Below, one piece after another: positions 3,261 through 39,072 of a stretch of DNA of 64,000 bases. Positions within the stretch are counted from its first letter, which is position 1. The number at the start of each line of letters is the position of its first letter. A program made the position numbers and the translations under genes. Under the pieces are notes generated by a model. The model ran no database searches. It was given only the letters and a program-made list of their open reading frames with translations, and was not told the DNA's origin. The DNA comes from Clostridia bacterium (GTDB lineage: Bacteria; Bacillota; Clostridia; Christensenellales; CAG-314), in contig JAFQSA010000057.1 in NCBI GenBank assembly GCA_017409765.1, positions 4,074 to 68,073 on the forward strand, read 5' to 3'.

Positions 3261-4598
3261 CTACTTTGTTAGCCAAACAAGTGTTTCGACGTTATCGGTA
3301 TTGGGGAACATATCGTATGGTTCGACGTAGGCAATGGTGTACTTAGTGGAAAGCATGGCTAGGTCGCGGGCGAGGGTTGCCGAGTCGCAAGAGATGTAGA
3401 CGATGTTATCCACATCGGCTTGCAAAATTGTGTTGCAAATGTTTTCGCCAAGGCCTTTGCGAGGGGGATCCACCACCATTGTGATGGTTTTTCCCTTTAG
3501 TTCCTGCGTGAGTTTGGGAAGTTCCACATTGACGTCGCCACAAACGTTGGTAACACGTGGGGTGTTGTTGAGTTCCACCATTTTGTTGGCGTCCGCTACG
3601 GCGCTGGGGACAATTTCCAACGCGTAGGTTTGATAACGCTCCGATGCAAGGGCAGTTGTCAAAATGCCGATACCGCTAAAGCAATCAATCAAAACGTCGG
3701 TGTTGGCCACATTCAAAAGATCCTTTGCCTTTTGGTAGATTGCATCCTTGACGCCATTGTTAACTTGGAAAAAGCTATCCGGTTCCAAGCAGAATTTTAC
3801 GCCAAAATGCTCGCCCATAATTTGGGAAATTCCGTACACGTGTCGCGTAATTTTGCCCAAAATGACGTTGTTTTTGTAGGTGTTGACGTTGACAAAAAGT
3901 CCAAACGTTGGAAACACCTTTTTGAGCTCCGTAACAAGAGGTTTCAAGTCGAAATTGAACTCGCCATTGGATACAATTGTTACAAGCAGTTGCTCGTCCA
4001 CATACCTTGCAACCAAGTGGCGCACCACCCCTGTGAAGGTTTTTTCGTTGTAGGGTGGGATGTTGTTTTGGTTGAGATAGTCACGGAAAATTTGCGTGAG
4101 TTTGGTGGACCAACTGCCACCCAAAAGGCAATCGTCCATGTTGACAACAACGTGACTGCCCCTTTGGTACATGCCGATTTTTGCATTGCCCACGCGCCCT
4201 GCCACCGGCAAGGAAAGTTTGTTGCGGTAGCCAAACACAAGGTTGGATGGCACGCAAGGCAACACGTCAACATCCAACTTGGCAAGTTTTTTGATATTTC
4301 CTGCCACCTTGTTTTGTTTGAATTTGAGTTGCTCGGCGTAGTCCATGTGCATCAAAGTGCATCCGCCACACTTGCCAAAGTGACGGCAAGTGGGATTGAC
4401 ACGCATTGGAGATGGTGTCAAAATTTCCACCACGTCGGCATAGGCAACGTTCTTTTTGACGTAGGTAACCTTGACTGTGGCAGTTTCGCCAACAATCATG
4501 CCACCCACAAACACGGTGTAGCCATCAACTTCGCCAACAGTTTCCGCATTGGCGTAGCCGGTGGCTGTGTATGTAATTTTGTCGTTTTGTTTTAGCAT
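3261..4598 (-). CDS. 23S rRNA (uracil-C5)-methyltransferase, RumA/RlmD (TrmA) family
   Basis: TRAM-like N-terminus, Cys cluster CRHFGKCGGC, SAM-binding DCFSGIG, catalytic-region PPRKG, and DMFPNT near the C-terminus. The start is uncertain (ATG at 4598 versus the ORF-track start at 4661). Confidence 0.85.
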   Translation of the reverse strand: MLKQNDKITYTATGYANAETVGEVDGYTVFVGGMIVGETATVKVTYVKKNVAYADVVEILTPSPMRVNPTCRHFGKCGGCTLMHMDYAEQLKFKQNKVAGNIKKLAKLDVDVLPCVPSNLVFGYRNKLSLPVAGRVGNAKIGMYQRGSHVVVNMDDCLLGGSWSTKLTQIFRDYLNQNNIPPYNEKTFTGVVRHLVARYVDEQLLVTIVSNGEFNFDLKPLVTELKKVFPTFGLFVNVNTYKNNVILGKITRHVYGISQIMGEHFGVKFCLEPDSFFQVNNGVKDAIYQKAKDLLNVANTDVLIDCFSGIGILTTALASERYQTYALEIVPSAVADANKMVELNNTPRVTNVCGDVNVELPKLTQELKGKTITMVVDPPRKGLGENICNTILQADVDNIVYISCDSATLARDLAMLSTKYTIAYVEPYDMFPNTDNVETLVWLTK

Positions 4599-21107: not shown

Positions 21108-22280
21108 ATGGACTATCAAGGTACAATTTCGCGCGGAATTCGCGCACCAATCATCAAACGTGGCGACGACCTTGCGCAAATCGTTGCTGATTGCGTTGTA
21201 AACGCATCGGTTAGTGGCGGTTTTGAACTAAACGACAAGGACGTTGTTGCCGTTACCGAGGCGGTGCTTGGACGCGCTCAAGGTAACTACGCAACTTTGG
21301 AACAAATCGCAAAGGACGTGCACGAAAAGTTTGGCGACGAAACGGTTGGTCTTGTTTTGCCAATTCTTTCCAGAAATAGATTTTCCATGCTTTTGAGAGC
21401 CATCAGCATGGGCGTTAAGAAGTTGATTGTGCAACTATCCTATCCAAGTGACGAAGTGGGCAACAGTTTTGTTACCACCGAGCAATTGATGGAAAAGGGC
21501 GTTAACCCCTACACCGACGTGTTTACAGCGGAGGAGTTCCACAACACCTTTGGCGACGTAAAACACGTGTTTACAGGTGTGGACTACATCGACTACTACC
21601 AAGAAATTGGCAACTGCCAAGTTATCCTTGCAAACAATCCTTGCGAAATTTTGAAACATACAAAGTACGTTATCAATGCGGATATCCACACTCGCAAGCA
21701 AACAAAGGCAATCCTTTTGAATGCCGGCGCAAAGAAAGTTTGCTCGTTGGACGAATTTATGACACACTCCGTTGACGGCAGTGGCTACAACGAACAATAC
21801 GGTATTTTGGGTAGCAACCTTGCCACCGAAAACAGCGTAAAACTTTTCCCACGCGATTGCGAAAACTTTGTTTTGCGTGTGCAAAAACTCATCTTCGAAA
21901 AGACAGGCAAAATGCTGGAATGCATGGTGTACGGCGATGGCGCTTTCAAAGACCCTGTTGGTGGCATTTGGGAACTTGCTGACCCAGTTTGCTCGCCAGC
22001 GTTCACAAGCGGACTTGTTGGCACTCCTAACGAAATCAAACTCAAGTACGTTGCAGATAACAAACTTGCAGGACTATCTGACGAGGAAGCGGAACGCGAA
22101 CTGAAGAAGATAATTGCCCAAAAGCAAAACAACCTTGTTGGCAACATGCTCAGCCAAGGCACAACACCAAGACGCATCACCGACTTGCTTGCCAGCCTTG
22201 CCGACCTTACAAGTGGTAGCGGCGACAAAGGCACACCAATTGTGCTTGTACAAAACTACTTCAAAAACTACGCAATGTAA
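21108..22280 (+). CDS. CofE-like (F420-0:gamma-glutamyl ligase family) protein
   Basis: 390 aa. The N-terminal block IKRGDDLAQIV...DKDVVAVTEAVLGRAQGN resembles the CofE/FbiB ligase fold signature. Assigned from memory only. Confidence 0.5.
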   Translation: MDYQGTISRGIRAPIIKRGDDLAQIVADCVVNASVSGGFELNDKDVVAVTEAVLGRAQGNYATLEQIAKDVHEKFGDETVGLVLPILSRNRFSMLLRAISMGVKKLIVQLSYPSDEVGNSFVTTEQLMEKGVNPYTDVFTAEEFHNTFGDVKHVFTGVDYIDYYQEIGNCQVILANNPCEILKHTKYVINADIHTRKQTKAILLNAGAKKVCSLDEFMTHSVDGSGYNEQYGILGSNLATENSVKLFPRDCENFVLRVQKLIFEKTGKMLECMVYGDGAFKDPVGGIWELADPVCSPAFTSGLVGTPNEIKLKYVADNKLAGLSDEEAERELKKIIAQKQNNLVGNMLSQGTTPRRITDLLASLADLTSGSGDKGTPIVLVQNYFKNYAM

Positions 22281-22696: not shown

Positions 22697-23512
22697 CTAC
22701 TTCAACGTGGGCAAAAGATTGGCAAAATCCACGCCAAAACGAGGGTCGGTGCGCTCCGTTTGACTTGCGCAGTTGCCAACAAAGATGGCGGATAGTTGAG
22801 TGGCTTGCAAAAGATTGCAAGAACAAAGCAGTTCGCCCAAAAGCACCGAACTGAACAAATCCCCCGTGCCAGAGAAAGGTGTGCCAACGCGAGTGTTTGT
22901 GACAAATCGCGCGCCACTTGGTGTAAGCACCACGTTACCAATCAATTCATTACAGGGCACTCCTGTAATAACGGCGTTTTTTGCACCAGTTTTAGCAAGG
23001 AGATCTTGGAAAATTTTGCCAACGGTTGCCAAAAAGGTAGGCTCATCTTGGTGGGACATCACGTTCGCAAAAGGAACGTCACAAAGCAAACACGCCTCCG
23101 TTAGGTTTGGTGTGATAACGTCGGCATACTTGACGATTTGTTTCATCTCACTAACGTAGTCGGCATCAAACACGCTGTACAGTTTGCCGTTGTCGCCCAT
23201 GATGGGGTCTACCAAAACAAAGGCGTCCTTGAACGTTTGCACCACGTTTGACACCTCTTTGAGGGTTTGTGTGCATTGGCAAAAACCAACGTACACGGCA
23301 TCCGCAGAGATCTTTTGTAGGACGTCTTCCGCAAAAATTTGCACGCGCTCGTTGGGTAAAACGTGGAAACGGCCAAAGCCAGTTTGTGCGGAGTAGTGAG
23401 CAGTTACAATGGGCATACACATGTGGCCCAAGTGGGAAAGCACCGGCAAGTTGACACTCATCGAGCAGTTGCCAAGTGCAGATATATCGTTGAATACAAG
23501 AATTTTTTTCAT
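22697..23512 (-). CDS. pdxK: Pyridoxal/pyridoxine/pyridoxamine kinase (ribokinase superfamily)
   Basis: ATG at 23512 (MKKILVFNDISALGNCS). Ribokinase-fold blocks VDPIMGDNGKLY, VITPNLTEA and GTGDLFSS. Confidence 0.75.
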   Translation of the reverse strand: MKKILVFNDISALGNCSMSVNLPVLSHLGHMCMPIVTAHYSAQTGFGRFHVLPNERVQIFAEDVLQKISADAVYVGFCQCTQTLKEVSNVVQTFKDAFVLVDPIMGDNGKLYSVFDADYVSEMKQIVKYADVITPNLTEACLLCDVPFANVMSHQDEPTFLATVGKIFQDLLAKTGAKNAVITGVPCNELIGNVVLTPSGARFVTNTRVGTPFSGTGDLFSSVLLGELLCSCNLLQATQLSAIFVGNCASQTERTDPRFGVDFANLLPTLK

Positions 23513-23716: not shown

Positions 23717-24385
23717 TTAGTCGTTTTGGTCGCCTTCAACTGGAGTTATGTCCGTTTGGGGAGCATCTTGCGCAACAACAACTACAACTTTGGCTTTTTT
23801 ACTTGGGGCTTTGGGCGCAGTTGTTTGAGCGGTTTGCTCGATACTTGGCGCAAGGGAGTGCATCAAACCGCTTGGCAATGCGCGCAAAATAAGATTTACC
23901 GCAAAGCCAACGATAAGTCCCGCCAAAATGCCAACAAGTGCAAGCCATGGCATGTAGGAAAACATTTCCGGCGTGTTGGATATCAAGCAAAATACCACGT
24001 TTTGTGTGATGTTGTGGCAAATTGCCGACACAACGGAAATGGCGATGATGCTAACGTGTGGGTAGGCAAACTCCACCAAAAAGGCGGAAATAACAACGGA
24101 AACGATGCCGGCTGTCAAACTGTACATAAGCGTGGACATACCGCCACCAAACATACTGCCAAGCACGGTGCGCACCACCACGACAATCAACGCGTCAACT
24201 GGTCCAAGAAGGTACAACGTGAGCAAGGAAAAGATGTTTGATAGGCCCATTTTTGCGCCCGGCAAAAACAGCGGTGGGAACAGACTTTCCACCATGAACA
24301 TGATTAGCCCCATTGCGCACAACACGGATAACGTTGCAATGCGTTTGGCATTGAAATATTTAGTTTTTGTGTTGAGTGATGGCAT
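23717..24385 (-). CDS. Gx transporter family protein (Pfam 'heptaprenyl diphosphate synthase component I'-type polytopic membrane protein)
   Basis: ATG at 24385 with an AAGGAAC SD. About 5 TM helices with blocks GAKMGLSNIFSLLTLYLLGP and RTVLGSMFGG. Low-complexity Ala/Pro/Lys C-terminal tail. Confidence 0.7.
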   Translation of the reverse strand: MPSLNTKTKYFNAKRIATLSVLCAMGLIMFMVESLFPPLFLPGAKMGLSNIFSLLTLYLLGPVDALIVVVVRTVLGSMFGGGMSTLMYSLTAGIVSVVISAFLVEFAYPHVSIIAISVVSAICHNITQNVVFCLISNTPEMFSYMPWLALVGILAGLIVGFAVNLILRALPSGLMHSLAPSIEQTAQTTAPKAPSKKAKVVVVVAQDAPQTDITPVEGDQND

Positions 24386-24557: not shown

Positions 24558-26570
24558 TTAATCGGTAACAACTTTGAGGTAGTTGGGGCTACAAACGATG
24601 GTTTGGCCGGCGGTTGTCATTGTGCCAAAGTTGCGGACGCAATCTTGGTGGAAACCGCAAATGGAATCGGTCATCTTGGCGGTGGGTTGCGCGCCTGTGG
24701 TGATTGTCACTTGGTTGAAGCGCATTTCGCCATCAAATTCCCTTTCAAAGCGAACAACGATGCCGTTCTCTGTTTGGGTTACAGTAACACTCCAGGGGCA
24801 ATCTTCCGCCACTTGGTACTCGTTACGAGTTACGTTGTACATGAACAACACTTGGTTTGTTTGCATGTCCACAACGGAAACGGTTTGGATATTTTGGAAT
24901 GCTTGGTCGTTTTCCCCAAAGAATACGGAAAACAGCACCACAATTACCAATACCAACACAATGTACACCATCACGTCGGCTGGTTTGAAGAATTTGTCCT
25001 TTTTGACAAATGGGATGTTTTGCGATTGCTTGTGCTTGTGGGTTGTGTATCTTGCAACTACAACCACCGTAAACAATGCCACCACAACTACTGCAAACAC
25101 AACAAGTAGCCAGGTGTAGTCCGTTTTGGGTAGCTCGATGAGTTCGGCATTGCCATCATACGTCCAATGGCCATCCACCTTTTTCAAGTTCCAACTGAGT
25201 TGTTGCCAACTGTCGCTCAAAGGTGTGAGGGCGCTTTGGTCCATGTTGGAAAGCACTTGTTTGCCACCATCAATTGCTTGGTGGAACACCAAAACATCAA
25301 TGTTGTTTTCACTAAAAAAGCCCGTGTTGCAAAAGTCCACAATGCCATCTCTGCCAAGCACCGTCATTGCGGTGGAAAGGCAGTCGGCCTTGCAAGCCCA
25401 GTAGTTACTGCCGTCGTCATCGGGGATGGTGATGGTGATAGAGTTGATGCCCGTTTGCGCAGGAGCACCACGTTTACCATCCACAATGTGTGCATACTCG
25501 ATACCATTTGTTGTGTACTTGCGTACGTACTGACCGCTTGTGGATACCGAGCGATTGGCAATTTCAAAACCAACAAGTCCCGTTGGGAAAAATCCTGCGT
25601 ACTCATCAAATGGGTCGTTGATGGACATTTTGATATTTCCACCGGTGGAGTTGAAACCGTAGGTTTGGCTACTGCTACCAGCATCGACAAAAAACCTTGT
25701 TTGGCCGATTTGGGCAAGTTGTTGCTTGACTAGGTCCACAACGTAGCCTTTGGCAATACCGCCAAGGTCCAGCCATTGGTCGAACTTGACACCATCCACC
25801 ACCGCTGGCGCAACGTTTTTGGTAACAAAGTAGTTGCCGTCTTTTTCCGTAAGGGTTACTGCGCTTTGAGAAAAATCGGTAAATGCCGTATTGGAAAAGG
25901 CATCAATATACTTTTGATCAGGCAATGGGTAGCCATTTGCTTGCCACTCGGCAAAGGTAACTTCGCGGTCGTAAGGCAAACCAAAGTTGCCTTGGGAGTA
26001 GATACGGCTAGAAAATCCCCACAAGTCCACCAAGCGGTAGATTGCTGGGTTAAATGCGCCGTTGGTTAGTTGGTACATCTCGCGACCGATACTCAGCATC
26101 TTGTAGGTGTGGTAGTCAATTTGTAGTTCCGCGCCTTGGGATGCTTGGTTGTAGCGGTAGATGTCGGACGTAGGCAGACCGTTTTGTCCGTTGTACTGAG
26201 TGTTGGCAACGGCATCAACAGCATTGGTGGTTGCATCCACCCAATCGAAAAACTCCACCACTTTGGCTCTGGTTGCAAGTTGGTCGTCCGTCAAACTGTT
26301 GCCACCAATCCAAAAGCCAAGGTCAAAGCCGTTTGGATCGGAATACAGTTGGATGGATACGGCAATTCCGCTTGCGCCAAAGTAGCTTTTGGAAAAGCTG
26401 ATACCCACAGGGTTACCGTCGCCATCCACCATGGAGTGCAACGTGTAGCCGTTGGCATGTGGTTGGTAACTCTTTTCGCTTTCCGTAGCGGAAAGGGCGC
26501 TTGCAGGAATTACCGCAAACGTAGCAAACAACAAGGAAAGTATCAAGATTGCTAAAAAGAGTTTTTTCAT
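24558..26570 (-). CDS. apbE: Secreted FAD:protein FMN transferase (ApbE) fused via a TM hairpin to a C-terminal NusG_II domain
   Basis: ATG at 26570, signal peptide MKKLFLAILILSLLFATFAVIPASA. ApbE blocks GAFNPAIYRLVDLWGF, LDLGGIAKGYVVD, VSTSGQYVRKY...AHIVDGKRGAP and ADCLSTAMTVLG. Two TM helices flank a basic loop at about 24900-25120. The C-terminal ~115 aa match the NusG domain II family (QVLFMYNV...NGIVVRFE...VTITTG...CGFHQDC...IVCSPN). Confidence 0.8.
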   Translation of the reverse strand: MKKLFLAILILSLLFATFAVIPASALSATESEKSYQPHANGYTLHSMVDGDGNPVGISFSKSYFGASGIAVSIQLYSDPNGFDLGFWIGGNSLTDDQLATRAKVVEFFDWVDATTNAVDAVANTQYNGQNGLPTSDIYRYNQASQGAELQIDYHTYKMLSIGREMYQLTNGAFNPAIYRLVDLWGFSSRIYSQGNFGLPYDREVTFAEWQANGYPLPDQKYIDAFSNTAFTDFSQSAVTLTEKDGNYFVTKNVAPAVVDGVKFDQWLDLGGIAKGYVVDLVKQQLAQIGQTRFFVDAGSSSQTYGFNSTGGNIKMSINDPFDEYAGFFPTGLVGFEIANRSVSTSGQYVRKYTTNGIEYAHIVDGKRGAPAQTGINSITITIPDDDGSNYWACKADCLSTAMTVLGRDGIVDFCNTGFFSENNIDVLVFHQAIDGGKQVLSNMDQSALTPLSDSWQQLSWNLKKVDGHWTYDGNAELIELPKTDYTWLLVVFAVVVVALFTVVVVARYTTHKHKQSQNIPFVKKDKFFKPADVMVYIVLVLVIVVLFSVFFGENDQAFQNIQTVSVVDMQTNQVLFMYNVTRNEYQVAEDCPWSVTVTQTENGIVVRFEREFDGEMRFNQVTITTGAQPTAKMTDSICGFHQDCVRNFGTMTTAGQTIVCSPNYLKVVTD

Positions 26571-26773
26571 AGTTACCTTGGTGGCAATTTCACAATGCCA
26601 AATTTTTACTGATACCATTTTACCACAAACTTGCAACCTTTGGCAAGAAATAAGGATATGGTTGTGTAGATAATATTATATAATTAAATATATTTGGAAA
26701 ATTTGCAAACAAAAAAGGCATCCAAAACAAATTCGCATCGCTTGTGTTTGCAAAAAAAATGCATTACACCATA

Positions 26774-26798: not shown

Positions 26799-26934
26799 TT
26801 TTTCGTGGTTATGGGCTAATGTGAGAGCACAGGTCCTTTGGCCCTATTTATCTGCTTGTATCACGATATGTCAAAATTAGTACACGCAACACTTGGCAGT
26901 TGTGTTTGTGTAGTACGTTGTGTAAAATTTGCAA

Positions 26935-26964
26935 ACAAAAAAGGCATCCAGTTTGGATGCCTTT
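26935..26964 (-). terminator. Terminator of the 251-aa lipoprotein gene
   Basis: GGCATCCAAACTGGATGCC stem followed by a U-run on the minus strand. A truncated copy of its 5' half lies at 26700-26730. Confidence 0.8.
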
Positions 26965-26998
26965 TGTTTTGTGGTTTAGTGTTTAGGTTGGACCAAAA

Positions 26999-27754
26999 TT
27001 ATTTTTGGATAGCAGCCTTCAAGATTACAAGGTAATCCCACATGTCTGTCCATGTAGCACCTGTCTTAACGCCGTTTTTGTCAACCCATTCGTTGTCGTA
27101 AACACCAGTAGCGCCTTCTTGGTAACGAGAAGCTTGTTTGAAGTCTTCCTTAGCTGTGATAGCGTCAACACCGTTTTTAACAACGTATCTGCATGTAGCA
27201 TCAGCATTGATAGCCCAACCAGCAGCGGATTGACCGATGTTGCCGTTTGTGGACCAGTAACCGTTTTGGCTCTTGAGAAGTTTTGCAGCTGTCATGATTG
27301 TTTTGTCTTCCTTACCACCAATCATAACGGAAACTTCGTTTTTAGCAACTGCTTCGAAGTAGAGTTCGCAGTTAGCTTCGTCAGCAAAGAAGTCGAGCAT
27401 CTTTGTGGAACCAACTTGGTAGCCGTTTGTAGCATCGTAAACCATTTCTACGCCACCAAATCTAACTGTTTTGTAGAAGTGCTTTTGAACTTCGTTACCG
27501 TGGTCAAGAACTGTTGCTGTAACTGTATCAGCAGATGCTTCGGAAGCAACAATGTATGTTGGCAAGCAAGCTTCGTCAAGAGATGCGTCAAGAACTTTGT
27601 CGCCATCTACAAAAACAGTTGCCTTACCTACGTAGCCTTTGCCGTGTACAAGACCGTAAGCAGACTTTGTTTGAAGGGATTGACCGCAAGCAACAAGTGC
27701 AAGAGCGGAAACCATCATTACTACTGCAAGAGCAATAACAAGAATCTTTTTCAT
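26999..27754 (-). CDS. Lipoprotein with an expanded FMN-binding-like domain and a C-terminal TGAT flavinylation-type motif
   Basis: Lipobox LALVAC. N-terminal GKGYVGKATVFVDGDKVLDASL beta-hairpin block. C-terminal GVKTGATWTDMWDYLVILKAAIQK. The signal peptide is identical to the two downstream paralogues. Confidence 0.65.
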   Translation of the reverse strand: MKKILVIALAVVMMVSALALVACGQSLQTKSAYGLVHGKGYVGKATVFVDGDKVLDASLDEACLPTYIVASEASADTVTATVLDHGNEVQKHFYKTVRFGGVEMVYDATNGYQVGSTKMLDFFADEANCELYFEAVAKNEVSVMIGGKEDKTIMTAAKLLKSQNGYWSTNGNIGQSAAGWAINADATCRYVVKNGVDAITAKEDFKQASRYQEGATGVYDNEWVDKNGVKTGATWTDMWDYLVILKAAIQK

Positions 27755-27814
27755 TTTAGTTTTCTCCTATAAAAATATATTTTTGGGGATATGGAATTTG
27801 CTCCATACGCCTTC

Positions 27815-27843
27815 ATTATATCTATAATTGACATTCCGGTCAA
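27815..27843 (-). promoter_or_regulatory. Sigma-A promoter TTGACC-17-TATAAT of the 251-aa lipoprotein gene
   Basis: Read on the minus strand. Followed by the 5'-UTR hairpin TATGGA/TCCATA at 27790-27807. Confidence 0.7.
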
Positions 27844-28047
27844 GTCTATAACTACAAAAATCGTTATATTTTTTTACTATTGGGTTATAAATTTTATTTA
27901 TGGTTGTTGCGACAATATTATATCTTGTTTATAGATGCAAAATTGTTTTGTTGGATGTTTGATATCGCGCTACAAACAACTACAGCAAACAACGTTTGCG
28001 CAACAAAAAAATGACATACTTTGCAAAATTACCACAAAAATTGTAGC

Positions 28048-28076
28048 AAAAAAGGCACCCGACTTGGATGCCTTTT
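28048..28076 (-). terminator. Terminator of the 160-aa lipoprotein gene
   Basis: GGCATCCAAGTCGGGTGCC stem followed by a U-run on the minus strand. Confidence 0.75.
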
Positions 28077-28099
28077 GAGGTTTGCTAATTGAAGATCAA

Positions 28100-28582
28100 T
28101 TATTTTGCAAGTTTGCTAAGAGCGTTTTGGATAGCAAGGATTGTACGACCGGAAGATTGTGTAGCACCAGTAACATATTCAACACCTGTGATTGTTTTTG
28201 GTTGGCTCTTATCGTCACATTCTACTACGATAGCGTTAACTTCTTCAACTGTCATGCCTACAAAGCTTTGAGCAAAGCTGTCACGTTGAGCAAGCCAAGC
28301 TTGTTTACCTTCTGTTGGGTTACCATCTGGTTGATAGTTATCTGTCCAACCAGCGGAAACGTTGAAGAATGTTTCTGTATCAGCTGTAACTTCAATCTTT
28401 GTGATAGTTCCGTTAACAACAGTTACCTTAACTTTGCAACCGTAAGAGCTTTCGCCTGTTTCGTCGTGGCTGTTTTTGTAGCTGTATTCACCTTCAACAA
28501 CTTGTGGTTGAGCGCAAGCTGTAAGAGCGAAAACGGAAACCATCATTACTACTGCAAGAGCAATAACAAGAATCTTTTTCAT
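28100..28582 (-). CDS. FMN-binding domain lipoprotein (predicted ApbE substrate)
   Basis: Lipobox ALTAC. YGCKVKVTVVNGTITKIEV block. C-terminal EYVTGATQSSGRTILAIQNAL, which matches the [ST]GA[ST] flavinylation motif. Confidence 0.75.
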   Translation of the reverse strand: MKKILVIALAVVMMVSVFALTACAQPQVVEGEYSYKNSHDETGESSYGCKVKVTVVNGTITKIEVTADTETFFNVSAGWTDNYQPDGNPTEGKQAWLAQRDSFAQSFVGMTVEEVNAIVVECDDKSQPKTITGVEYVTGATQSSGRTILAIQNALSKLAK

Positions 28583-28641
28583 TTTTGTGTTCTCCTTAAA
28601 ATATATTTTTATTGTTATGAACTTTGATTCATACGAGCAAC

Positions 28642-28670
28642 ATTATATACCCATTTTTATAACAGGTCAA
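28642..28670 (-). promoter_or_regulatory. Sigma-A promoter TTGACC-17-TATAAT of the 160-aa lipoprotein gene
   Basis: Read on the minus strand. 5'-UTR hairpin TATGAA/TTCATA lies downstream. Confidence 0.7.
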
Positions 28671-28813
28671 GTTGTTGATTATAAATTGTTTATAAGTTTT
28701 TTATAATGTTGTTATAAGTTTTTGCTATGGATGTAACACAACTATGACACAAACCTTTGCCACTACAATACTATCGTTGTTGCAAACACGCTTATACACC
28801 AGGAAAATTGCAA

Positions 28814-28845
28814 CAAAAAAAGACACCCCCTTGGGATGCCTTTTT
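28814..28845 (-). terminator. Terminator of the 152-aa lipoprotein gene
   Basis: GGCATCC...GGGTGTC stem with G-U pairs, followed by a U-run on the minus strand. Confidence 0.6.
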
Positions 28846-28867
28846 GATTTTGCTAATTGCAAGTTAA

Positions 28868-29326
28868 TTATGCAGCAAGTTTGCTAAGAGCGTTTTGAAC
28901 AGCAACGATGATGCGTGCAGCGGAAACTGTACCACCTGTGATTGCCCAACCTTCGGTTGTAACGGATTGACCATCAGCTGTTGCTGTAGCAACGATAGCG
29001 TTAACTTCTGCAACTGTCATACCAACAAACTTGTTGAGGAATGCTTCGTAAGCGCCTTCAACTGCATCGAACTTTTCTTGTGTCCAACCATATTCTGGCA
29101 TTGGAGAGGAAGTTCTAACCCAACCAGTTTCTGCATCTGTGTAGAGTTTTACTTCTGTGATGATGTCGCCTTTAACTGTAACATCAACTTTAACACCATA
29201 CTTTGTGCCGTGGGAATTTTCGTACATGCATTCGCCTGTAACTGTTTGTGGTTGAACGCAAGCTGTGAGAGCAAAAGCGGAAACAACCATGATTACTGCA
29301 AGAGCAATAACAAGAATCTTTTTCAT
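28868..29326 (-). CDS. FMN-binding-domain-like lipoprotein with a variant acceptor motif (TGGT)
   Basis: Lipobox ALTAC. YGVKVDVTVKGDIITEVKL block. C-terminal WAITGGTVSAARIIVAVQNAL. Confidence 0.7.
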   Translation of the reverse strand: MKKILVIALAVIMVVSAFALTACVQPQTVTGECMYENSHGTKYGVKVDVTVKGDIITEVKLYTDAETGWVRTSSPMPEYGWTQEKFDAVEGAYEAFLNKFVGMTVAEVNAIVATATADGQSVTTEGWAITGGTVSAARIIVAVQNALSKLAA

Positions 29327-29381
29327 TTTCGTTTTCTCCTCTATAATATTTATTATTGCTATTTACATAGCAATTTAGTTC

Positions 29382-29410
29382 ATTATAGTGATTTTGGAGA
29401 ACGCGGTCAA
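29382..29410 (-). promoter_or_regulatory. Sigma-A promoter TTGACC-17-TATAAT of the 152-aa lipoprotein gene
   Basis: Read on the minus strand. 5'-UTR hairpin TTGCTAT/ATAGCAA lies downstream. Confidence 0.7.
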
Positions 29411-29685
29411 GCAGTTAAAAACAAGTTTTTGGTGATATTTTTTGCATGTTTTAGGTGTGTTTTAGCGATGTTTTAGTGATGTTTTTATGATATTATATGG
29501 TTGGTATAACCATCAAATATTGACATTGTGCGCCTTGTTTGATTGCTTGCGCAGGCAAAAACAGTTGGACGATTGACTGCAAGACAACGGAGCGAGGAAA
29601 CACATTGTGATTAGTCATTGCAAGTTGTGGCAACTATCAAAACGTTTTGAAATAGTTTTGTGGTGGGCAGTTTACGTTGATGTTT

Positions 29686-30252
29686 TTACTCGCCAAACAT
29701 TTTGAGTTTTACCCTTTGGTTGAGTTTGCAAAGGGGCGCAAAACCGATGGCGAAAAGAGCCAAGTTGCACAGCACTTGTGTGGCGTAGAAGGGAATGCCT
29801 GCTAGGTACATTGCAACAAATCGCTTGCCAAAGTTATCGAAATCGAAAAAGAATCCGCCACCTTGAACAAAGCCCACGCAGGTATCCACACCGCTTGTGA
29901 GCAAGCCAAACAATGCCGACATCACAACTGCCAAAGTTGTTGCAAGCACAACCTTTGCCAACTTGCCCACCTTGATTTTGGAAAGTAACCAAAAAGCAAT
30001 GGCAAGGCAATTCCAATGGATGACGTAGCTGATAACCCAGGTGTTTGGGCCAAAGATTGCAACGTCGATGGCGATGAATACAAATACTGCAGGCAAAGCC
30101 ACCCCAAGCCCCCAAACGTAGGAACAAAGGGCAACAACAATTGTAACAACCTCCACGTTGGGGATTGCCGAAAGCGCTTGTTTGCCACCCACAAGCAATG
30201 CGGAAAACATTGCCGTGATGGCGATGTAGAGTGCGGGATTTTTGCGTTTCAT
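29686..30252 (-). CDS. ECF-transporter S-component-like membrane protein (possibly cobalamin-specific, CbrT-like)
   Basis: ATG at 30252 (MKRKNPALYIAITAMFSALL). ~188 aa with 5-6 TM helices. Lies downstream of the B12-riboswitch-controlled DUF4430 gene. No clear SD. Confidence 0.5.
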   Translation of the reverse strand: MKRKNPALYIAITAMFSALLVGGKQALSAIPNVEVVTIVVALCSYVWGLGVALPAVFVFIAIDVAIFGPNTWVISYVIHWNCLAIAFWLLSKIKVGKLAKVVLATTLAVVMSALFGLLTSGVDTCVGFVQGGGFFFDFDNFGKRFVAMYLAGIPFYATQVLCNLALFAIGFAPLCKLNQRVKLKMFGE

Positions 30253-30370
30253 AGTTGATGTTTGTTTGATAGATAATTTATGCCTTGTGCTTATTAGAAT
30301 ACCATCAATATCTTTGAGCAAAACGGAAAGCGATATGATGATATAGATGTGTGGTATTTCGAATAGTTTT

Positions 30371-30416
30371 GCCCTCTCCGTCTTGCTACGCAATCCACCT
30401 CCCCCAAAGTGGGAGG
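30371..30416 (+). repeat. Family B intergenic repeat
   Basis: GCCCTCTCCGTCTTGCTACGCAATCCACCTCCCCCAAAGTGGGAGG. Confidence 0.75.
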
Positions 30417-30547
30417 CATCGTGTCGCGTATTAAACGCGTCGCGCACAAAGTGGAAGCCATCGCGAGTTGTTGAATTATGCCGTGTCATCCAACGGGGAA
30501 AGCGCTTGCCACGATATAATTTTAGTTACTATGCTACAATTTGCGTG

Positions 30548-30580: not shown

Positions 30581-31078
30581 CTAGAAGGTGGAAATTTCGA
30601 AGTAGAAAATTGCGCCACTTTGCACTTTGGCATCACTAACGCCCACTTGTGCGGACACAATTTGTGTGCCATCCACGTTGTAGGTGGGAACGCCTGCCCA
30701 GTTGCCTTTGTCGCTTTCCACCGTAGTGAAAAATGCGACAAACTCGTTTTTGGATGCATCCGGCACCGCTTTGCCAATGGCGTTGAGCATCTTGCCGTAG
30801 TCGCTGTCCATCCAATCCAAATGCATGCCGTTTTCCTTGAGGTAAGCAAGCACGTCTTCCACCGAAGTCATATCCTCGGACAATGTTACGGTGTAGCTTG
30901 TGTAGTCGCTTTCGCCATTTTTGATGATTACTGCAACTTGGCCTTGCTTGAGAGTGGGCAACTCAAGTTTATCAAGTGCCTTTTCGGTGGGTTTTTCCAC
31001 ACAGGCAACCAAACCAGTTGCACAAACAACAAGCACCACCATCAAAATCCACGTTAACAGTTTTGTTGTGTTTTTCAT
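30581..31078 (-). CDS. DUF4430-type (transcobalamin-like beta-grasp) lipoprotein
   Basis: ATG at 31078 with an AAAGGAGA SD. Lipobox GLVAC. Blocks SVEDVLAYLKENGMHLDWMDSDYGKMLNAI and AKVQSGAIFYFEI, typical of DUF4430. Confidence 0.7.
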   Translation of the reverse strand: MKNTTKLLTWILMVVLVVCATGLVACVEKPTEKALDKLELPTLKQGQVAVIIKNGESDYTSYTVTLSEDMTSVEDVLAYLKENGMHLDWMDSDYGKMLNAIGKAVPDASKNEFVAFFTTVESDKGNWAGVPTYNVDGTQIVSAQVGVSDAKVQSGAIFYFEISTF

Positions 31079-31162
31079 AGTTATTCTCCTTTGCAACATT
31101 TGTTGCGCTATTCTAACACAATTTTCCGTGTGGAGTTGATGTTTTTTGCCAAAAATGCAATA

Positions 31163-31190
31163 AAAATCGCCGATACGTCGTTGTTTTTTG
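31163..31190 (+). repeat. Family C motif copy (AAAAATCGCCGATACGTCGTTGTTTTTTG)
   Basis: Lies inside the 5' UTR, between the riboswitch terminator and the DUF4430 ATG. Confidence 0.75.
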
Positions 31191-31216
31191 TAGGATTGCG
31201 CAGTCATTTTGCCAAC

Positions 31217-31255: not shown

Positions 31256-31440
31256 AAAAATGAGTTGAATCTTTGCATCGAAGACCACTCGAAAATTGTT
31301 GCAGTTGGGCATTCGGACTTGGCAATGCCTTACCGTAGCGGGACTGTCAATGATTTGCACATTGTTCCCCCACAAATGCGATTGTTACAATTCAATTTGT
31401 AAGATACCAACAACGTTTTCCATCGTAAAGTGGGTGCTTT
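31256..31440 (-). promoter_or_regulatory. Cobalamin (B12) riboswitch
   Basis: The minus strand reads GGGAAC-AATGTGCAAATCATTG-ACAGTCCCGCTACGGTAAGG and then GCCAAGTCCGAATGCCC. This matches the GGGAA / GGUG.AAAUCC / CCCGC.AC.GUAAG core and a B12-box-like segment. The downstream genes are a typical B12 regulon. Confidence 0.75.
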
Positions 31441-31785: not shown

Positions 31786-34353
31786 ATGAAAAAGTTAGCA
31801 TTAGCTTTGCTGATGGTTTTGTGCGTCACTTGCCTGTTTTGCGCTTGTGATTTTATGGAAGAGCCGTGCACAATCACAACGGAAAAAAGCAGATACACCG
31901 TCTACGTTGGGGACACGGTAGACTACAAAAGTTACTTTACAATCACTAGCGCTACAGGGGAAAACGTGCCCGTTACCGACGACATGATTTCCGCGCCTGA
32001 TGCGGACTTGACAAGGCCATGGTCTTTCCTTGTGACATGCGCCTACCAAGGCGTTTCCAAATCCATCATCATCTCGGTGGAAAACAAACCTGGTGCGCAC
32101 ACCCACCAATTTGCCGATGCAACCTGCACCGCTCCAAAGACATGTTCTTGTGGAATTACCGAAGGCGAGGCGCTTGGTCACACAGAAAAGGTTGTGGATG
32201 CAACACCTGCCACTTGCACACAAAGCGGTCTAACCGAGGGCAAGGTTTGCTCCGTTTGCAACGAGGTGCTTGTGGCGCAACAAAGCGTTACAGCAACAGG
32301 TCACACCGAGCCAAACGCTCAAGGACGATGCGCTACTTGTGGCGAACAACTGCTACTTTCCACTTTGGATCTTGCCGATGCCATGGCAAAGTGCAATAAG
32401 TACGAAAAGTGGAACTTTGCTGTGAAGTTTGACGTGTCCGTTGCGGACAAATCCCTTGCGGAAGAGTACGCCTACACATACATCTACTACTACGACGGAG
32501 TAAACTTCTACTACAGCGACGTTGAAGGCAGTTTTTACGACTACATCGTCTACACCGACGACAACATCTTGTACTACTTGGATAACGAAAACGGAACGCA
32601 CTCGCTTTTGACTGCCGAGGATGATGCCTTTTACGATTGGTATCCCTACTTGGATTTTATCGAATTGACAACACTTGTACAATTTAACTTTGAGACAAAT
32701 GGCAACCGCTTTTCGGCAAGTTTGCCAAATGCTGTTGGCGAAGAGGTTATCGGTGGCTACGAGGATTGCGTGTACACCGCATTTGATATCTACGTTGTGG
32801 ACGACGTGATTGTAAAGATTGTGGCAATTCAACAAGACTATCAACTGAACACAACCTTTACCTACACGTTGGAGTTTTACAACCACGGCAACATCACAAT
32901 GGACACAAGCAAGTTGGTTGTGGAAAACGACCCCAGCCTTGACCAAGGTGGCGGAGAAACTCCACCAGTTGACGGCGGAACAATGCCTGAGCAAGTGTTT
33001 GACGAAAACAATCACGTGGACTACGACGACATTTTGTACGATGCCATCACCGACTACGACGACAAAAACTACTACTTGCCATCTACTGGATTGCCATCAC
33101 AAGGCAAGTACAACGTGCTTGTTGTACCTGTGGAGTTTTCCAACGACGTTTTTACCGCGCAAGAACTAGAAGACATTGCAAAAGTGTTCAACAATCAATC
33201 GGCAACCGGTTGGCAAAGTGTTGCAAGTTACTACAAAACCTCCTCCTACGGAAAGTTGGACTTGACCTTTGATATTGCTGACAAAGTTTCCTTGAGCGCA
33301 ACCTACCAAAGTTTCAACAAGGCGGACACCAATGGCGAAAAGGACTACGGTCAAAGCATCTTTAAGCAAGCATTGGATAAACTTGATGCGCGCGGATTTG
33401 ACTTTTCCAAGTACGACTACGATAACAACGGCATTATTGATGGTGTGTACATCATCTACAGCGCGCCAGTTGACTACGACACAACCGACTACTACTGGGC
33501 GTACGTAACCGCCTACACCGCTGATGACCAAACGGAGTACGACAATCTGTTGCCCTACACCTACCTGTTTGCAAGTGTGGACTTTGCCTACGAGGATATC
33601 GAAACAAGCGACCCTGAGGAGTTTAGCCCCATTGCTAGTCTAAAACTAAACGCAACAACCTACATCCACGAAACGGGCCACATGTTGGGATTGGACGACT
33701 ACTACGACTACATGCCTGACCAAGGTAGCGACCAAGGTTTGGGCGGTGCGGACATGATGGACTACACCGCGGGCGACCACAATGCCTACTCCAAGTTGTT
33801 GCTTGGTTGGGTAAAGCCAACGGTTGTAACGTCATCACAAACTGTGACCATCAACCCACTGGAAAGTAGCGGACAGTTCATCATTGTGCTACTGGACTAC
33901 AACGGAACGTACTTTAGCGAATACTTGATCATCGATTTGTACTCCGCAACGGGACTAAACGAGATGCACGCCAACGTGGAAGGTAGTTACCTCTACGAAG
34001 GGGCAAAATTTGGTGCGCGTATCTATCACGTTGACGCCACCATCAACATCCCCTACAACGAAAATGACACCTACCAATCCTTTACAGATAACAACAACTC
34101 CACCACAGCGCATCCGTTGTTGCAGTTGGTGGAAGCGGACGGCGACAAGAATTTTGAAAGCGAAGGGGAATACTACCAAGGTCAATACTACACCCAGGCG
34201 GGCGCAGACGACTTGTGGCAAACGGGCGACGTGTTTAGAAACGTCCATCCATACTACACTCGCCACGATGGCAAGGAAGTAAACTTTGATATCACATTTG
34301 ATAGCGTAACTGCAACAAGCGCAACCATTACAATATCTTTTGACTACGAATAG
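31786..34353 (+). CDS. M6-like (immune inhibitor A-type) zinc metalloprotease lipoprotein with N-terminal Cys-rich repeats
   Basis: ATG at 31786 with an AAAGGGGG SD. Lipobox-like LFCAC. Three ATC-x-G/CxxC modules (ATCTAPKTCSCG, ATCTQSGLTEGKVCSVCN, RCATCG). M6-type start KYNVLVVPVEFSND. HExxH site IHETGHMLGLDDYYDY. Confidence 0.75.
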   Translation: MKKLALALLMVLCVTCLFCACDFMEEPCTITTEKSRYTVYVGDTVDYKSYFTITSATGENVPVTDDMISAPDADLTRPWSFLVTCAYQGVSKSIIISVENKPGAHTHQFADATCTAPKTCSCGITEGEALGHTEKVVDATPATCTQSGLTEGKVCSVCNEVLVAQQSVTATGHTEPNAQGRCATCGEQLLLSTLDLADAMAKCNKYEKWNFAVKFDVSVADKSLAEEYAYTYIYYYDGVNFYYSDVEGSFYDYIVYTDDNILYYLDNENGTHSLLTAEDDAFYDWYPYLDFIELTTLVQFNFETNGNRFSASLPNAVGEEVIGGYEDCVYTAFDIYVVDDVIVKIVAIQQDYQLNTTFTYTLEFYNHGNITMDTSKLVVENDPSLDQGGGETPPVDGGTMPEQVFDENNHVDYDDILYDAITDYDDKNYYLPSTGLPSQGKYNVLVVPVEFSNDVFTAQELEDIAKVFNNQSATGWQSVASYYKTSSYGKLDLTFDIADKVSLSATYQSFNKADTNGEKDYGQSIFKQALDKLDARGFDFSKYDYDNNGIIDGVYIIYSAPVDYDTTDYYWAYVTAYTADDQTEYDNLLPYTYLFASVDFAYEDIETSDPEEFSPIASLKLNATTYIHETGHMLGLDDYYDYMPDQGSDQGLGGADMMDYTAGDHNAYSKLLLGWVKPTVVTSSQTVTINPLESSGQFIIVLLDYNGTYFSEYLIIDLYSATGLNEMHANVEGSYLYEGAKFGARIYHVDATINIPYNENDTYQSFTDNNNSTTAHPLLQLVEADGDKNFESEGEYYQGQYYTQAGADDLWQTGDVFRNVHPYYTRHDGKEVNFDITFDSVTATSATITISFDYE

Positions 34354-36651: not shown

Positions 36652-38913
36652 CTAAATTATCTTTGCGACGACAACTGTCATATCGTCTGGGGGAGTGTTG
36701 TTGCATTGTTTTAGCGTTTTGGCTAAAATTGTTTCCGCAATGCTTTGGGGAGTTGTGTAGGTGACGTTGTGGACAATTTCCGCAAGCACAGTTACATCCT
36801 GATAGCAATCGGCAATGCCATCGCTAACAAGCACAATGATATCGGTACTGTGCAAGGCTTTTTTGGTGACGGAAGGTTTCATTTCCTCCAAGACACCAAG
36901 GGGCAGACTGCTTCCGCGGATCATTTCCACAGTTTGGGCGCACTTGACAAATCCCACGGGCGCACCCAATTTTACAAAGTCGGCAAAGCCGTTGTACAAG
37001 TCCACCACAACCATATCCACCGCGCAAAAGATTTCGTTGCCAGATTGTGTGAGCAGACCGTTGACAGCGGACAAAATTGTGTCGGAATCGAACCCCGCGC
37101 GGTAGAAACTTTCCACCAAGTTGATTGCGGTGGAGGACATTTTTTCCGCCTTGGCACCGCTACCCATACCATCGCAAAGTGTGACGATGCTTTTGCCGTT
37201 GTCGGTGACAATTTGGCCGTGGGTATCGGCGGAAATTTCGCTACCGGATTTAGCAACGGTAGCAACGCCAAAGGACATTTCAAACCGCGGTTTGACAGTT
37301 AGGTAGACGTTTACCCAGCGAGAGTTATCGGTGGATTCCACCTTTTGAGTGGACATCGTTTGCTTGACCACAATGCCAACACATTGCTCGATTGCCGATT
37401 CGTCAAGGTCCGTTTTGGCAACCGTCACCACCACAAGCAATCGGTTTGCGTGTGTTACAAGCGCAACGTCGGCACACAGCACGTTGTGGAAAATGAGCGT
37501 TTCCTTGATTTCCCTTTCGCGAGTGGCATCGAAGGAGATGTTGTTTTTGTAGTCGCTGGCAAGTTGCAACAATAGTTGCGACACCCCCGACATTTGGTCG
37601 GCAACAAGCAGTTTGGAACTGTTGCGGTCCTGTGATTCGACGACAAATTGTTTGTGCGTTTGAGCAAGGTCGTTGATGTGAGAAATGATCATGGAAAGCC
37701 GATCGCACTTGGCGGACAACGTTTGAGGGATATCCAAAATGGTACACTTGCCGTTGGCTATGGCAAGATGGGCTAGTTGCAAAAGGGCTTTTTCCGTAGT
37801 GGGCAAGTTTTGACGCCAACAAAGGGCACGACTTTTGCAGTTTTGGCAAATGGAACTACTGCACTCCTTGACAATCATACAAGCAACTTGCTGGGTGGAT
37901 GCTTGTCCAACGGACAAAGTATAAAAGGCGTTTTTGATAGCCATAAAAATTTCCGACAGACGAAAGAGCCTACGTGTTAGGTCTTGCGTGAGTTTGGTGG
38001 ACAAACTTTTTGCGATGTATCGTGTGGTGTTGCCACAAAAACTATCTCGTAGTTTTTTGTACACCGAAGTGGGGATAACCACAAACACCAACACCGACGT
38101 TAGCGTTGGCGCAAAAAACAATGCGTAAAAGTTGCCGTGCAAACCCAAAAAGTAACTAAGCGCCACATCCACCACGATCACTCCCAATGCCGAAAGGTAG
38201 CGGGAGATTGTGCCAAATGCAACAATTGCCAAGGCGGAAAGTACACAAAAAGCCATACCCTCCAATGCGCCTGTGGCAAGCAAGTTGCCTAGTCCGCAAA
38301 CCACCGCTGTGACAAAGGTTGTTTTTTCGTCAAAGCAACTGTTGGCAAAAAGCAAAGCAAAAGGCAACACAAAGTAGACCACTTCCAACGTGGCAATTGT
38401 AAACTTGGACAGGCAAAAAGTTTCCACAATGGCAAAAAGCGCAATGCAGATTTTTTCGCCCACTTGCGGTGGGTAGTTGAGTCCCCTTGCAAACACCGCG
38501 CGGAACACGTACAGCGAAACAAAACTGAACGCCACTCCGCAAGCAACAAAGGCAATTTTGTTGAACAAAGTTGGGTAGTCCACAAAGTTGTGACATAGGT
38601 AAAAGACGTTGGCAAGCAGAACGTACAACAAAAGATTGAACTTGCCAATTTTGCGCTTGGCAAAGTAGTGGATGGCCCAACAGGCAATCATCACGGCGAC
38701 GCGCACAGCGCATTGCAACAGATGAGTTAGTCCCCACATGGTGCTACTTGCAAGGTAGATAACACCCACTAGCAACGGATTGCCAGCATACAATCCGCCC
38801 ACAAAGGCGCCAAAGGAAAACATGCCGTCAAACACCTCGCCAGAGAGTACAACAGTTGCCGTGTACACAACGTAAAACAAAATTTGTTTTGCGGAAATTT
38901 TACTCTTTTTCAT
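36652..38913 (-). CDS. spoIIE: Stage II sporulation protein E (PP2C phosphatase with a 10-TM N-terminal domain)
   Basis: ATG at 38913 with an AAGGGGGC SD. Polytopic N-terminus. C-terminal PP2C blocks GDTHGQ-type (SADTHGQIV), LCDGMGSG and VSDGI. Confidence 0.85.
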   Translation of the reverse strand: MKKSKISAKQILFYVVYTATVVLSGEVFDGMFSFGAFVGGLYAGNPLLVGVIYLASSTMWGLTHLLQCAVRVAVMIACWAIHYFAKRKIGKFNLLLYVLLANVFYLCHNFVDYPTLFNKIAFVACGVAFSFVSLYVFRAVFARGLNYPPQVGEKICIALFAIVETFCLSKFTIATLEVVYFVLPFALLFANSCFDEKTTFVTAVVCGLGNLLATGALEGMAFCVLSALAIVAFGTISRYLSALGVIVVDVALSYFLGLHGNFYALFFAPTLTSVLVFVVIPTSVYKKLRDSFCGNTTRYIAKSLSTKLTQDLTRRLFRLSEIFMAIKNAFYTLSVGQASTQQVACMIVKECSSSICQNCKSRALCWRQNLPTTEKALLQLAHLAIANGKCTILDIPQTLSAKCDRLSMIISHINDLAQTHKQFVVESQDRNSSKLLVADQMSGVSQLLLQLASDYKNNISFDATREREIKETLIFHNVLCADVALVTHANRLLVVVTVAKTDLDESAIEQCVGIVVKQTMSTQKVESTDNSRWVNVYLTVKPRFEMSFGVATVAKSGSEISADTHGQIVTDNGKSIVTLCDGMGSGAKAEKMSSTAINLVESFYRAGFDSDTILSAVNGLLTQSGNEIFCAVDMVVVDLYNGFADFVKLGAPVGFVKCAQTVEMIRGSSLPLGVLEEMKPSVTKKALHSTDIIVLVSDGIADCYQDVTVLAEIVHNVTYTTPQSIAETILAKTLKQCNNTPPDDMTVVVAKII

Positions 38914-39072
38914 AGAGCCCCCTTGGTGCAAAAAGCCACAAAATTTGCAAACTTTTTGCATCACAAAAAATCCAACGATATGCGTTGGTTACCCCTATGA
39001 TAAAGCCAAAATGACAAACTATTTTGGAAAAGTATCCAAAACTTTGTCGGCTTTTACAATTTTATAAACAGG

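Follow-up and report, generated by a model that had tools for sequence, protein, structure and literature searches.

Organisation of the fused gene

The DNA analysed here, a stretch of 64,000 nucleotides from contig JAFQSA010000057.1 of a Clostridia bacterium (assembly GCA_017409765.1) hereafter called the window, carries a gene that joins two components of bacterial flavin export and flavinylation systems in a single polypeptide. These are ApbE (FmnB), a transferase that uses flavin adenine dinucleotide (FAD) to attach flavin mononucleotide (FMN) to proteins, and EetA, a membrane protein with a NusG_II (DUF1312) domain. The gene is an FmnB/ApbE-EetA fusion, and the identities of both domains are established by the evidence given below. 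It lies in a minus-strand open reading frame (ORF) spanning 24558..26636, in which an ATG at 26570 gives a 670-amino acid (aa) product. A sigma-70-like site (26646..26617, minus strand) falls within the longer, TTG-started ORF, which favours the ATG at 26570 as start. The gene and its parts, including two transmembrane helices (TM1 and TM2), are:

24558..26570, minus strand: ApbE(FmnB)-EetA fusion gene, whole, with the stop codon (24558-24560) included
26617..26646, minus strand: promoter-like site TTGCCA-18-TAAAAT with TG, upstream of the ATG at 26570 (consensus match only)
26487..26570, minus strand: signal peptide, aa 1-28 (MKK, hydrophobic core, ASALSA), without lipobox cysteine
25131..26486, minus strand: extracytoplasmic ApbE / FAD:protein FMN transferase domain, aa 29-480 (Pfam, structural model, Foldseek and motif alignment)
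25326..26216, minus strand: Pfam core of ApbE, aa 119-415
25053..25112, minus strand: TM1, aa 487-506, running from outside to inside and anchoring ApbE; absent from unfused lipoprotein ApbE
24975..25052, minus strand: cytoplasmic basic loop, aa 507-532 (hydropathy, charge and profile alignment)
24918..24974, minus strand: TM2, aa 533-551, running from inside to outside; counterpart of the single transmembrane helix of stand-alone EetA
24561..24917, minus strand: extracytoplasmic EetA / NusG_II / DUF1312 beta-domain, aa 552-670

Conservation of the fusion

Among 5.8 billion proteins searched, 241 homologues were identified. The best 120 of these are all full-length fusions, nearly all 650-720 aa long, covering 92-100% of the query down to 44% identity, and alignments of 26 and 99 members display one continuous conserved protein. 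The length of the TM1-loop-TM2 segment is constant, with a loop of 25-27 aa, and is maintained down to ~32-36% identity. Scanning one genome per species led to 52 loci, ~48 of them with a complete fused gene. All these ~48 species are represented by metagenome-assembled genomes of uncultured animal-gut Clostridia, the closest being Candidatus Fimimonas sp. (83%). An earlier, sequence-only reading of this DNA had proposed the covalent ApbE-NusG_II fusion and named a frameshift artefact among the findings that could overturn it. The presence of the same full-length ORF in >100 clusters (ENA, Logan, NCBI and JGI) and ~48 species establishes that the fusion is genuine and refutes the artefact.

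The last 150 aa of the product, comprising the loop end, TM2 and the C-terminal domain, were used as query in an exhaustive HMMER search of 1.84 billion representatives that retrieved 363 proteins; it replaced an earlier word-indexed search with a profile of the C-terminal module, which gave 10 fragments only. Among the best 150 HMMER matches (50%-identity representatives), ~35 are proteins of 590-700 aa with the module at their C-terminus, and the five of those that were inspected all have the ApbE motifs, TM1, basic loop, TM2 and domain. Of these five, the more distant show the canonical 'ADCP..C ... C.PH' motif. The matches also include >100 stand-alone proteins of 150-170 aa, whose alignment extends from residue ~9 through to the C-terminus; they are the small single-helix membrane proteins that the earlier reading had expected NusG_II proteins to be. 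Since the C-terminal 150 aa align with the whole of stand-alone EetA, it is a complete EetA that was fused. The N-terminus of EetA is cytoplasmic and the C-terminus of ApbE is outside, so that their junction required an extra helix, TM1.

A split form is found at one locus (L057, 958-3337), where an ApbE of 433 aa without lipobox or transmembrane segment ends in a stop codon. The next ORF, in another frame, codes for a TM1-like segment, basic loop, TM2 and EetA, and is followed by eetB; a PplA-like protein with two FMN_bind repeats is encoded upstream. This locus could be a genuine, secondary split or an assembly frameshift.

The ApbE domain

Pfam family PF02424 (ApbE) matches aa 119-415 with E=1.1e-42 and 146.9 bits, for a cut-off of 25.6. 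The AlphaFold2 model of the full-length protein, built from the 99-sequence alignment (pLDDT 87.5, pTM 0.79), has helices at residues 486-514 and 530-551, and its C-terminal domain (563-669) consists of beta structure throughout. Foldseek relates it to 39 ApbE/Ftp/FmnB chains of the PDB (E~1e-19, TM-target 0.72-0.84). Extra features of the domain are beta-strands at its N-terminus, a beta extension at its C-terminus and an insertion near aa 184-235. Four motifs, DLGGIAKGY, STSGQY, Y-x-H-I-I-D and D-x-L-T-T-A, do not vary within the family and have aligned counterparts in structures 1VRM, 6NXI and 4IFU; residues D268-G275, S343-Q347, H361, D396 and T400 are invariant across the 99 sequences. 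The metal, FAD and catalytic roles assigned to these residues follow published work on ApbE proteins. Since the motifs are invariant and aligned to solved enzymes, the domain looks catalytically competent, as predicted from its sequence. Profile match, fold and invariant motifs agree with the earlier description of an ApbE domain in which the four motif blocks checked are present. In that description GASGIAV would take the place of the canonical N-terminal MGT; the block F64-G65-x-S67-G-I69 is conserved among the aligned family members.

Tyr60 of the E. coli enzyme is the transferase-type tyrosine that contacts the isoalloxazine ring, a position occupied by Asn in the pyrophosphatase type (PMC4767422). 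Y126 of the fused protein, conserved in at least 90% of members, was aligned with Tyr57 of TM1553 in one profile alignment only, and a dedicated search left the Y126 segment unaligned to E. coli or T. pallidum Ftp.

The EetA domain

The C-terminal domain of the window protein scores 20.5-21.9 bits with PF07009 (NusG_II), below the cut-off of 29.6 bits, so that the NusG_II assignment of the sequence-only reading does not stand on the protein's own Pfam score. Its identity is nevertheless secured by hits in the family, profile alignment and structure comparison. PF07009 matches 20/20 family members at E<=0.01 (best 1.4e-8), with 3/44 family domains attaining roughly the gathering level. Its alignment by hhalign with 36 stand-alone proteins, 34 of which match PF07009 at E<=1e-6, has a probability of 100% (E=1.1e-39, 142 columns) and spans the K-x-F-K-x-x-D-x-x-x-Y motif, the transmembrane helix and the domain with three cysteines. 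In the fused protein this N-terminal motif of stand-alone EetA is matched by the loop end KKDKFFKPAD together with VMVY at the start of TM2. Precomputed annotations report PF07009 in 4/120 of the best homologues. The family model therefore misses the EetA part in >90% of these proteins, and surveys relying on Pfam count such loci as lacking eetA.

The first Foldseek matches of the model outside ApbE are 4ESN (probability 1.0, TM-target 0.72), the DUF1312 crystal structure of RUMGNA_02503, and then 1M1G, the NusG of Aquifex (probability 0.93). 4ESN, which is also the best PDB sequence match of the C-terminal part, shares the beta-domain fold and the C...C...C-x-P-N motif, its three Cys and Asn aligning with C638, C644, C660 and N663. 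These four residues are invariant in the EetA domain (codons within 24582..24659), and the three cysteines are invariant in the fused and stand-alone forms and in 4ESN. Domain II of the Aquifex and Thermotoga NusG has the same beta-domain fold but is a cytoplasmic insertion in a transcription factor, with no functional analogy to the domain studied here.

The basic N-terminal motif, transmembrane helix and C...C...C pattern are kept in fused and free EetA alike. Also invariant in both are D532 and Y536, at the cytoplasmic entrance of the transmembrane helix, and N619 in the beta-domain. These invariant residues and the cytoplasmic juxtamembrane motif suggest that EetA makes a further contact, within the membrane or on its cytoplasmic face, for which EetB or the energy-coupling factor (ECF) module is a plausible partner.

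Two other assignments of the C-terminal part were rejected. A CUB domain is matched weakly and in 1/20 members only, versus 20/20 for PF07009. The domain has no conserved [ST]G[AG][ST] motif that would make it a flavinylation substrate.

Membrane topology

The hydrophobic segments delimited by Kyte-Doolittle analysis are aa 4-22, 487-506 and 533-551. Between the second and third of these, the loop has 7 K/R versus 2 D/E, and the outer flanks are acidic. Averaged over the 99 aligned members, the loop has 7.4 K/R against 1.4 and 0.9 for the 15 residues on either side, and in all of them (99/99) it is richer in K/R than either flank. A signal-peptide-like N-terminus is found in 95/99 members and a lipobox-like motif in only 15. 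The window also contains a SpoIIE gene (36652-38964), which identifies the host as an endospore-forming Firmicute. The N-terminal signal peptide and the lipoprotein nature of the presumed substrates position ApbE outside; since two transmembrane segments separate the domains, ApbE and EetA lie on the same side, and we infer that both face the outside of the cytoplasmic membrane. The signal peptide, the two transmembrane segments and the positive-inside signal in 99/99 members all support the outward orientation proposed previously for the two domains.

Neighbouring genes and the unfused cassette

The genes flanking the fusion gene that relate to flavin export or flavinylation are:

23717..24385, minus strand: eetB (PF07456, Hpre_diP_synt_I, E=2.5e-35), coding for an ECF-S-type FAD exporter subunit
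26999..27754, minus strand: lipoA, 251-aa lipoprotein, candidate flavinylation substrate (without Pfam match; GATW.D motif, T234)
28100..28582, minus strand: lipoB, FMN_bind lipoprotein, likely flavinylation substrate (TGAT, aa 138-141)
28868..29326, minus strand: lipoC, paralogous lipoprotein (FMN_bind 20.2 bits, just below cut-off; TGGT, aa 130-133)

The eetB gene is located 172 bp downstream of the fusion gene on the same strand, with no terminator-like site in the gap. The same-strand arrangement with eetB directly downstream recurs in 47/48 related species loci (tblastn) and on all four further contigs (4/4) that encode three homologues of 44-48% identity. The earlier interpretation had the fusion and its topology right but overlooked that NusG_II is EetA and that the downstream gene is EetB.

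A lipoprotein of FMN_bind type is encoded near the fusion gene in 37/48 loci. In the window, the upstream lipoA, lipoB and lipoC carry the C-terminal flavinylation-type motifs ([ST]G[AG]T) TGAT, TGAT and TGGT, respectively. They are tandem paralogues with near-identical signal-peptide coding regions (a 154-nt repeat family, 26900-29420), and every one of them has a separate promoter-like site, TTGACC-17-TATAAT (27843, 28670, 29410), and a terminator hairpin that is conserved (26925-26965, 28036-28076, 28804-28844). LipoA has 119 homologues, some of the longer ones also with FMN_bind, and its residues G232-A233-T234-W235-x-D237 are invariant in the family. Its AlphaFold model (pLDDT 87.7) gives no significant Foldseek match in the PDB (best E=0.3). 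From these sequence features, the lipoA family may be an undescribed, putative family of flavinylated lipoproteins.

Ndh2, UbiA/polyprenyl synthase (DmkA/DmkB), CbiQ-type ECF-T (FmnA) and ECF ATPase genes are all absent among the scanned genes of the 64-kb window, which does not contain a complete FLEET locus, and no quinone or Rnf genes are present at the fusion locus. The Pyr_redox_2 gene at 58479-59735 belongs to a glycerol kinase / DAO cluster. It is common for a shared ECF module to be encoded at another place in the genome. A scan with Rfam detected only a cobalamin riboswitch, outside the fusion locus, and no plasmid match was obtained.

The unfused state of the same three-gene unit is the cassette of loci L005-L007, composed of lipoprotein apbE, eetA and eetB. 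Its ApbE (419 aa, PF02424 E=2.7e-51) is 33% identical to the window ApbE and shares its characteristic insertion, but has a classical lipobox and no C-terminal helix; its gene overlaps eetA by 4 bp. Among stand-alone proteins, the cassette EetA is the one most closely related to the fused module: P0160, of 164 aa, matches PF07009 with 37.7 bits and has a PF07456 gene downstream. The gene order and families are likewise those of Paenibacillus and other rows in Data Set S1 of PMC9973259. These cassettes differ from the window in having a separate lipoprotein ApbE of 340-420 aa and a separate EetA of 125-165 aa with a single transmembrane helix.

A pyridoxamine/pyridoxal-kinase-like gene (22697-23512, minus strand; PF08543; NF005491 173 bits, below cut-off) follows eetB in the window. 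A gene of this type holds the same position in 38/48 loci, a conserved association of a vitamin-B6-type kinase with the flavin module.

Relation to known systems

Light et al. (2018) reportedly described FmnB, EetA and EetB as components of the FLEET locus of Listeria monocytogenes. PF07456 corresponds to EetB, an ECF-S-like protein that binds FAD and that, in Listeria, is needed with FmnA (ECF-T) and EcfA/A' to export FAD for the flavinylation of PplA dependent on FmnB (ApbE) (PMC9973259). In the same study eetB co-localises with eetA in 3,328/4,214 genomes and with apbE in 2,169, EetA and EetB form single-chain proteins in 14 genomes, and a targeted delivery of FAD to ApbE is speculated upon by the authors (PMC9973259). 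Its Data Set S1 labels NusG_II (PF07009) as EetA and gives as usual state a separate EetA of 125-240 aa with a single transmembrane helix alongside a lipoprotein ApbE.

The window locus resembles Listeria FLEET (PMC9973259) in its three families, in an extracytoplasmic ApbE for the (here predicted) flavinylation of FMN_bind PplA-like lipoproteins, in EetB as the probable supplier of FAD and in the adjacency of eetA and eetB. It differs in that ApbE and EetA form one polypeptide, that ApbE has a Sec/SPI-type signal and a transmembrane anchor instead of a lipobox, that no Ndh2, DmkA/B or FmnA (ECF-T) genes are nearby, and that its candidate substrates comprise FMN_bind lipoproteins with a single domain and one lipoprotein that is unclassified. 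The fusion is a variant of the known flavin export/flavinylation system, not a new kind of system.

Other fusions offer partial parallels. The EetA+EetB, EetB+ECF-T and EetB+ECF-A chains (Rivera-Lugo et al. 2023, PMC9973259) tie EetA to flavin export in the manner of a Rosetta stone; their partner is a transporter subunit. In the window protein the partner is the flavin transferase, and the EetA-ApbE link that had been missing is thereby provided. The fumarate reductase of Trypanosoma brucei and Leptomonas with an N-terminal ApbE (PMC12052999) also has ApbE covalently joined to a functional partner, but the protein is intracellular and the partner is the flavinylation substrate, unlike EetA here, in which the flavinylation motif is not conserved.

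We found no mention of an ApbE-EetA fusion in PMC9973259, PMC9888254, the eLife flavinylation survey or a 2025 ApbE review. NusG_II and EetA do not appear in the main texts of the eLife survey, a 2024 mSystems paper and the 2025 review, where the sole ApbE fusion is the trypanosomatid fumarate reductase; the supplementary tables of the eLife survey list NusG_II genes beside apbE. The part of Data Set S1 of PMC9973259 that was available has separate genes only and no ApbE+NusG_II architecture, a weak negative. The association of ApbE, EetA and EetB is already published and only the covalent ApbE-EetA fusion appears undescribed.

Proposed role of the fusion

EetA (NusG_II/DUF1312) is widespread, being found beside eetB in 3,328 genomes (PMC9973259), but no function has been assigned to it, and the published models are divided over an electron-carrying role. 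The conservation of its fusion to ApbE provides separate evidence, from genomes, for EetA working together with the flavin transferase. Added to the EetA-EetB fusions already reported, this connects exporter, EetA and transferase.

We privilege the hypothesis, with a probability of about 0.6, that the locus encodes a flavin export/flavinylation module in which ApbE is tethered by an EetA adaptor at the EetB exporter for direct hand-off of FAD. EetB, powered by an ECF T/A/A' module encoded elsewhere, would bring FAD to the outer face of the membrane. ApbE would use this exported FAD to attach FMN to the Thr of the [ST]G[AG]T motif in the adjacent lipoproteins. EetA would serve as docking adaptor between EetB and ApbE, the lipid anchor of ApbE having presumably been exchanged in this lineage for a covalent EetA tether, and an ApbE held at the exporter could receive FAD by direct hand-off rather than by diffusion. 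Such a fusion offers a concrete model of FAD hand-off at the membrane and a natural single-chain construct for structural work. The joint action of both domains on the same extracytoplasmic substrate, put forward in the sequence-only reading, is probably not the best framing of the fusion.

Several points weigh against this hypothesis. The contact of EetA with EetB or ApbE is itself inferred. Deletion of eetA in Listeria has no extracellular electron transfer (EET) phenotype, EetA being dispensable there (PMC9973259), and a rival published model makes EetA part of the electron route (PMC9888254). Genes for ECF-T and ECF-A/A', needed for export of the EetB type, are missing from the 64-kb window, and the adaptor model assigns no part to the three invariant cysteines.

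A more specific and tentative extension, to which we give somewhat less than even odds, is that EetA is a coupling factor whose transmembrane helix and juxtamembrane motif dock on EetB while its tri-Cys domain receives or gates FAD for ApbE. Export and attachment would then form one channelled complex, of which the fusion would be the hard-wired form. If true, this would give a function to the DUF1312/NusG_II family, present in thousands of genomes including that of Treponema pallidum, and would explain why secreted FAD is undetectable in Listeria.

The alternative that EetA is an electron-transfer component, as in the original FLEET model and the L. plantarum model, seems unlikely to us. In this view the three cysteines would hold a metal or cluster, or else act as a redox-active disulfide, and the fusion would co-localise a maturation enzyme with the electron conduit serving the flavinylated lipoproteins. 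The invariance of C638, C644 and C660 from fused protein to 4ESN would fit such a site. The L. plantarum eetA/B double mutant loses flavin-dependent EET, and EetA was placed between Ndh2 and PplA or flavin (PMC9888254); however, this mutant lacks both eetA and eetB, and single complementation was unsuccessful (PMC9888254). The Listeria phenotype was traced to EetB and FAD export, the eetA deletion strain being wild type (PMC9973259). Moreover, it is not evident how electrons would cross the membrane by way of a single-pass protein whose one domain is a small beta-domain, and the locus is devoid of Ndh2, quinone or Rnf genes.

Less probable still is a neutral merger of the adjacent, overlapping apbE and eetA, the sole consequence of which would be a transmembrane instead of a lipid anchor, without channelling or cooperation. 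It would be in line with the 4-bp overlap of the unfused genes, with the loss of the lipobox in fused ApbE and with the split version of the same arrangement at L057. Simple read-through would, however, have left EetA wrongly oriented in the membrane: an additional transmembrane helix and a loop of conserved length (25-27 aa) were needed, and both were kept to ~32-36% identity, and EetA-EetB fusions exist independently (PMC9973259). Finally, an artefact, be it two genes joined through a sequencing frameshift or misassembly or a C-terminal domain of another type than NusG_II (e.g., CUB-like), can be dismissed for practical purposes: the sub-threshold PF07009 score of the window protein with a weak CUB match of similar score, and the different frames of the two parts at L057, are opposed by the same continuous ORF in >100 independent clusters and ~48 species genomes, by CUB in 1/20 members against PF07009 in 20/20, and by hhalign and Foldseek both pointing to DUF1312/NusG_II.

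Other features of the window

An AdoCbl-II riboswitch (RF01689, 42 bits; 31299-31390) lies ahead of a lipoprotein gene (30581-31207) and a gene for a protein with multiple transmembrane segments (29686-30489), on the minus strand. Neither has a Pfam match, and L001 contains the same pair (3469-4553), for which a role in B12-regulated uptake is probable. The plus-strand ORF 31786-34353 codes for an 855-aa secreted or lipoprotein-like protein with no Pfam match at E<=1e-3 and an HExxH-type sequence, IHETGHMLG, near aa 690, which may be an unclassified metalloprotease. A 390-aa protein (21108-22280, plus strand) matches F420-0:gamma-glutamyl ligase (PF01996, E=6e-52), the profile of 218 positions being spread over 374 residues, with scores far under the CofE equivalog cut-offs; we describe it as CofE-like with large insertions.

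NCBI taxonomy (taxid 2840648) places Candidatus Fimimonas under Myxococcaceae, and 'Corallococcus sp.' is among the titles of loci L008, L012, L014, L029, L036 and L048. In content, both the window and its relatives are of Firmicute type (SpoIIE, WhiA, ~45% GC), most of the relatives bearing the label Clostridia; the Myxococcaceae and 'Corallococcus' labels look like a taxonomy artefact.

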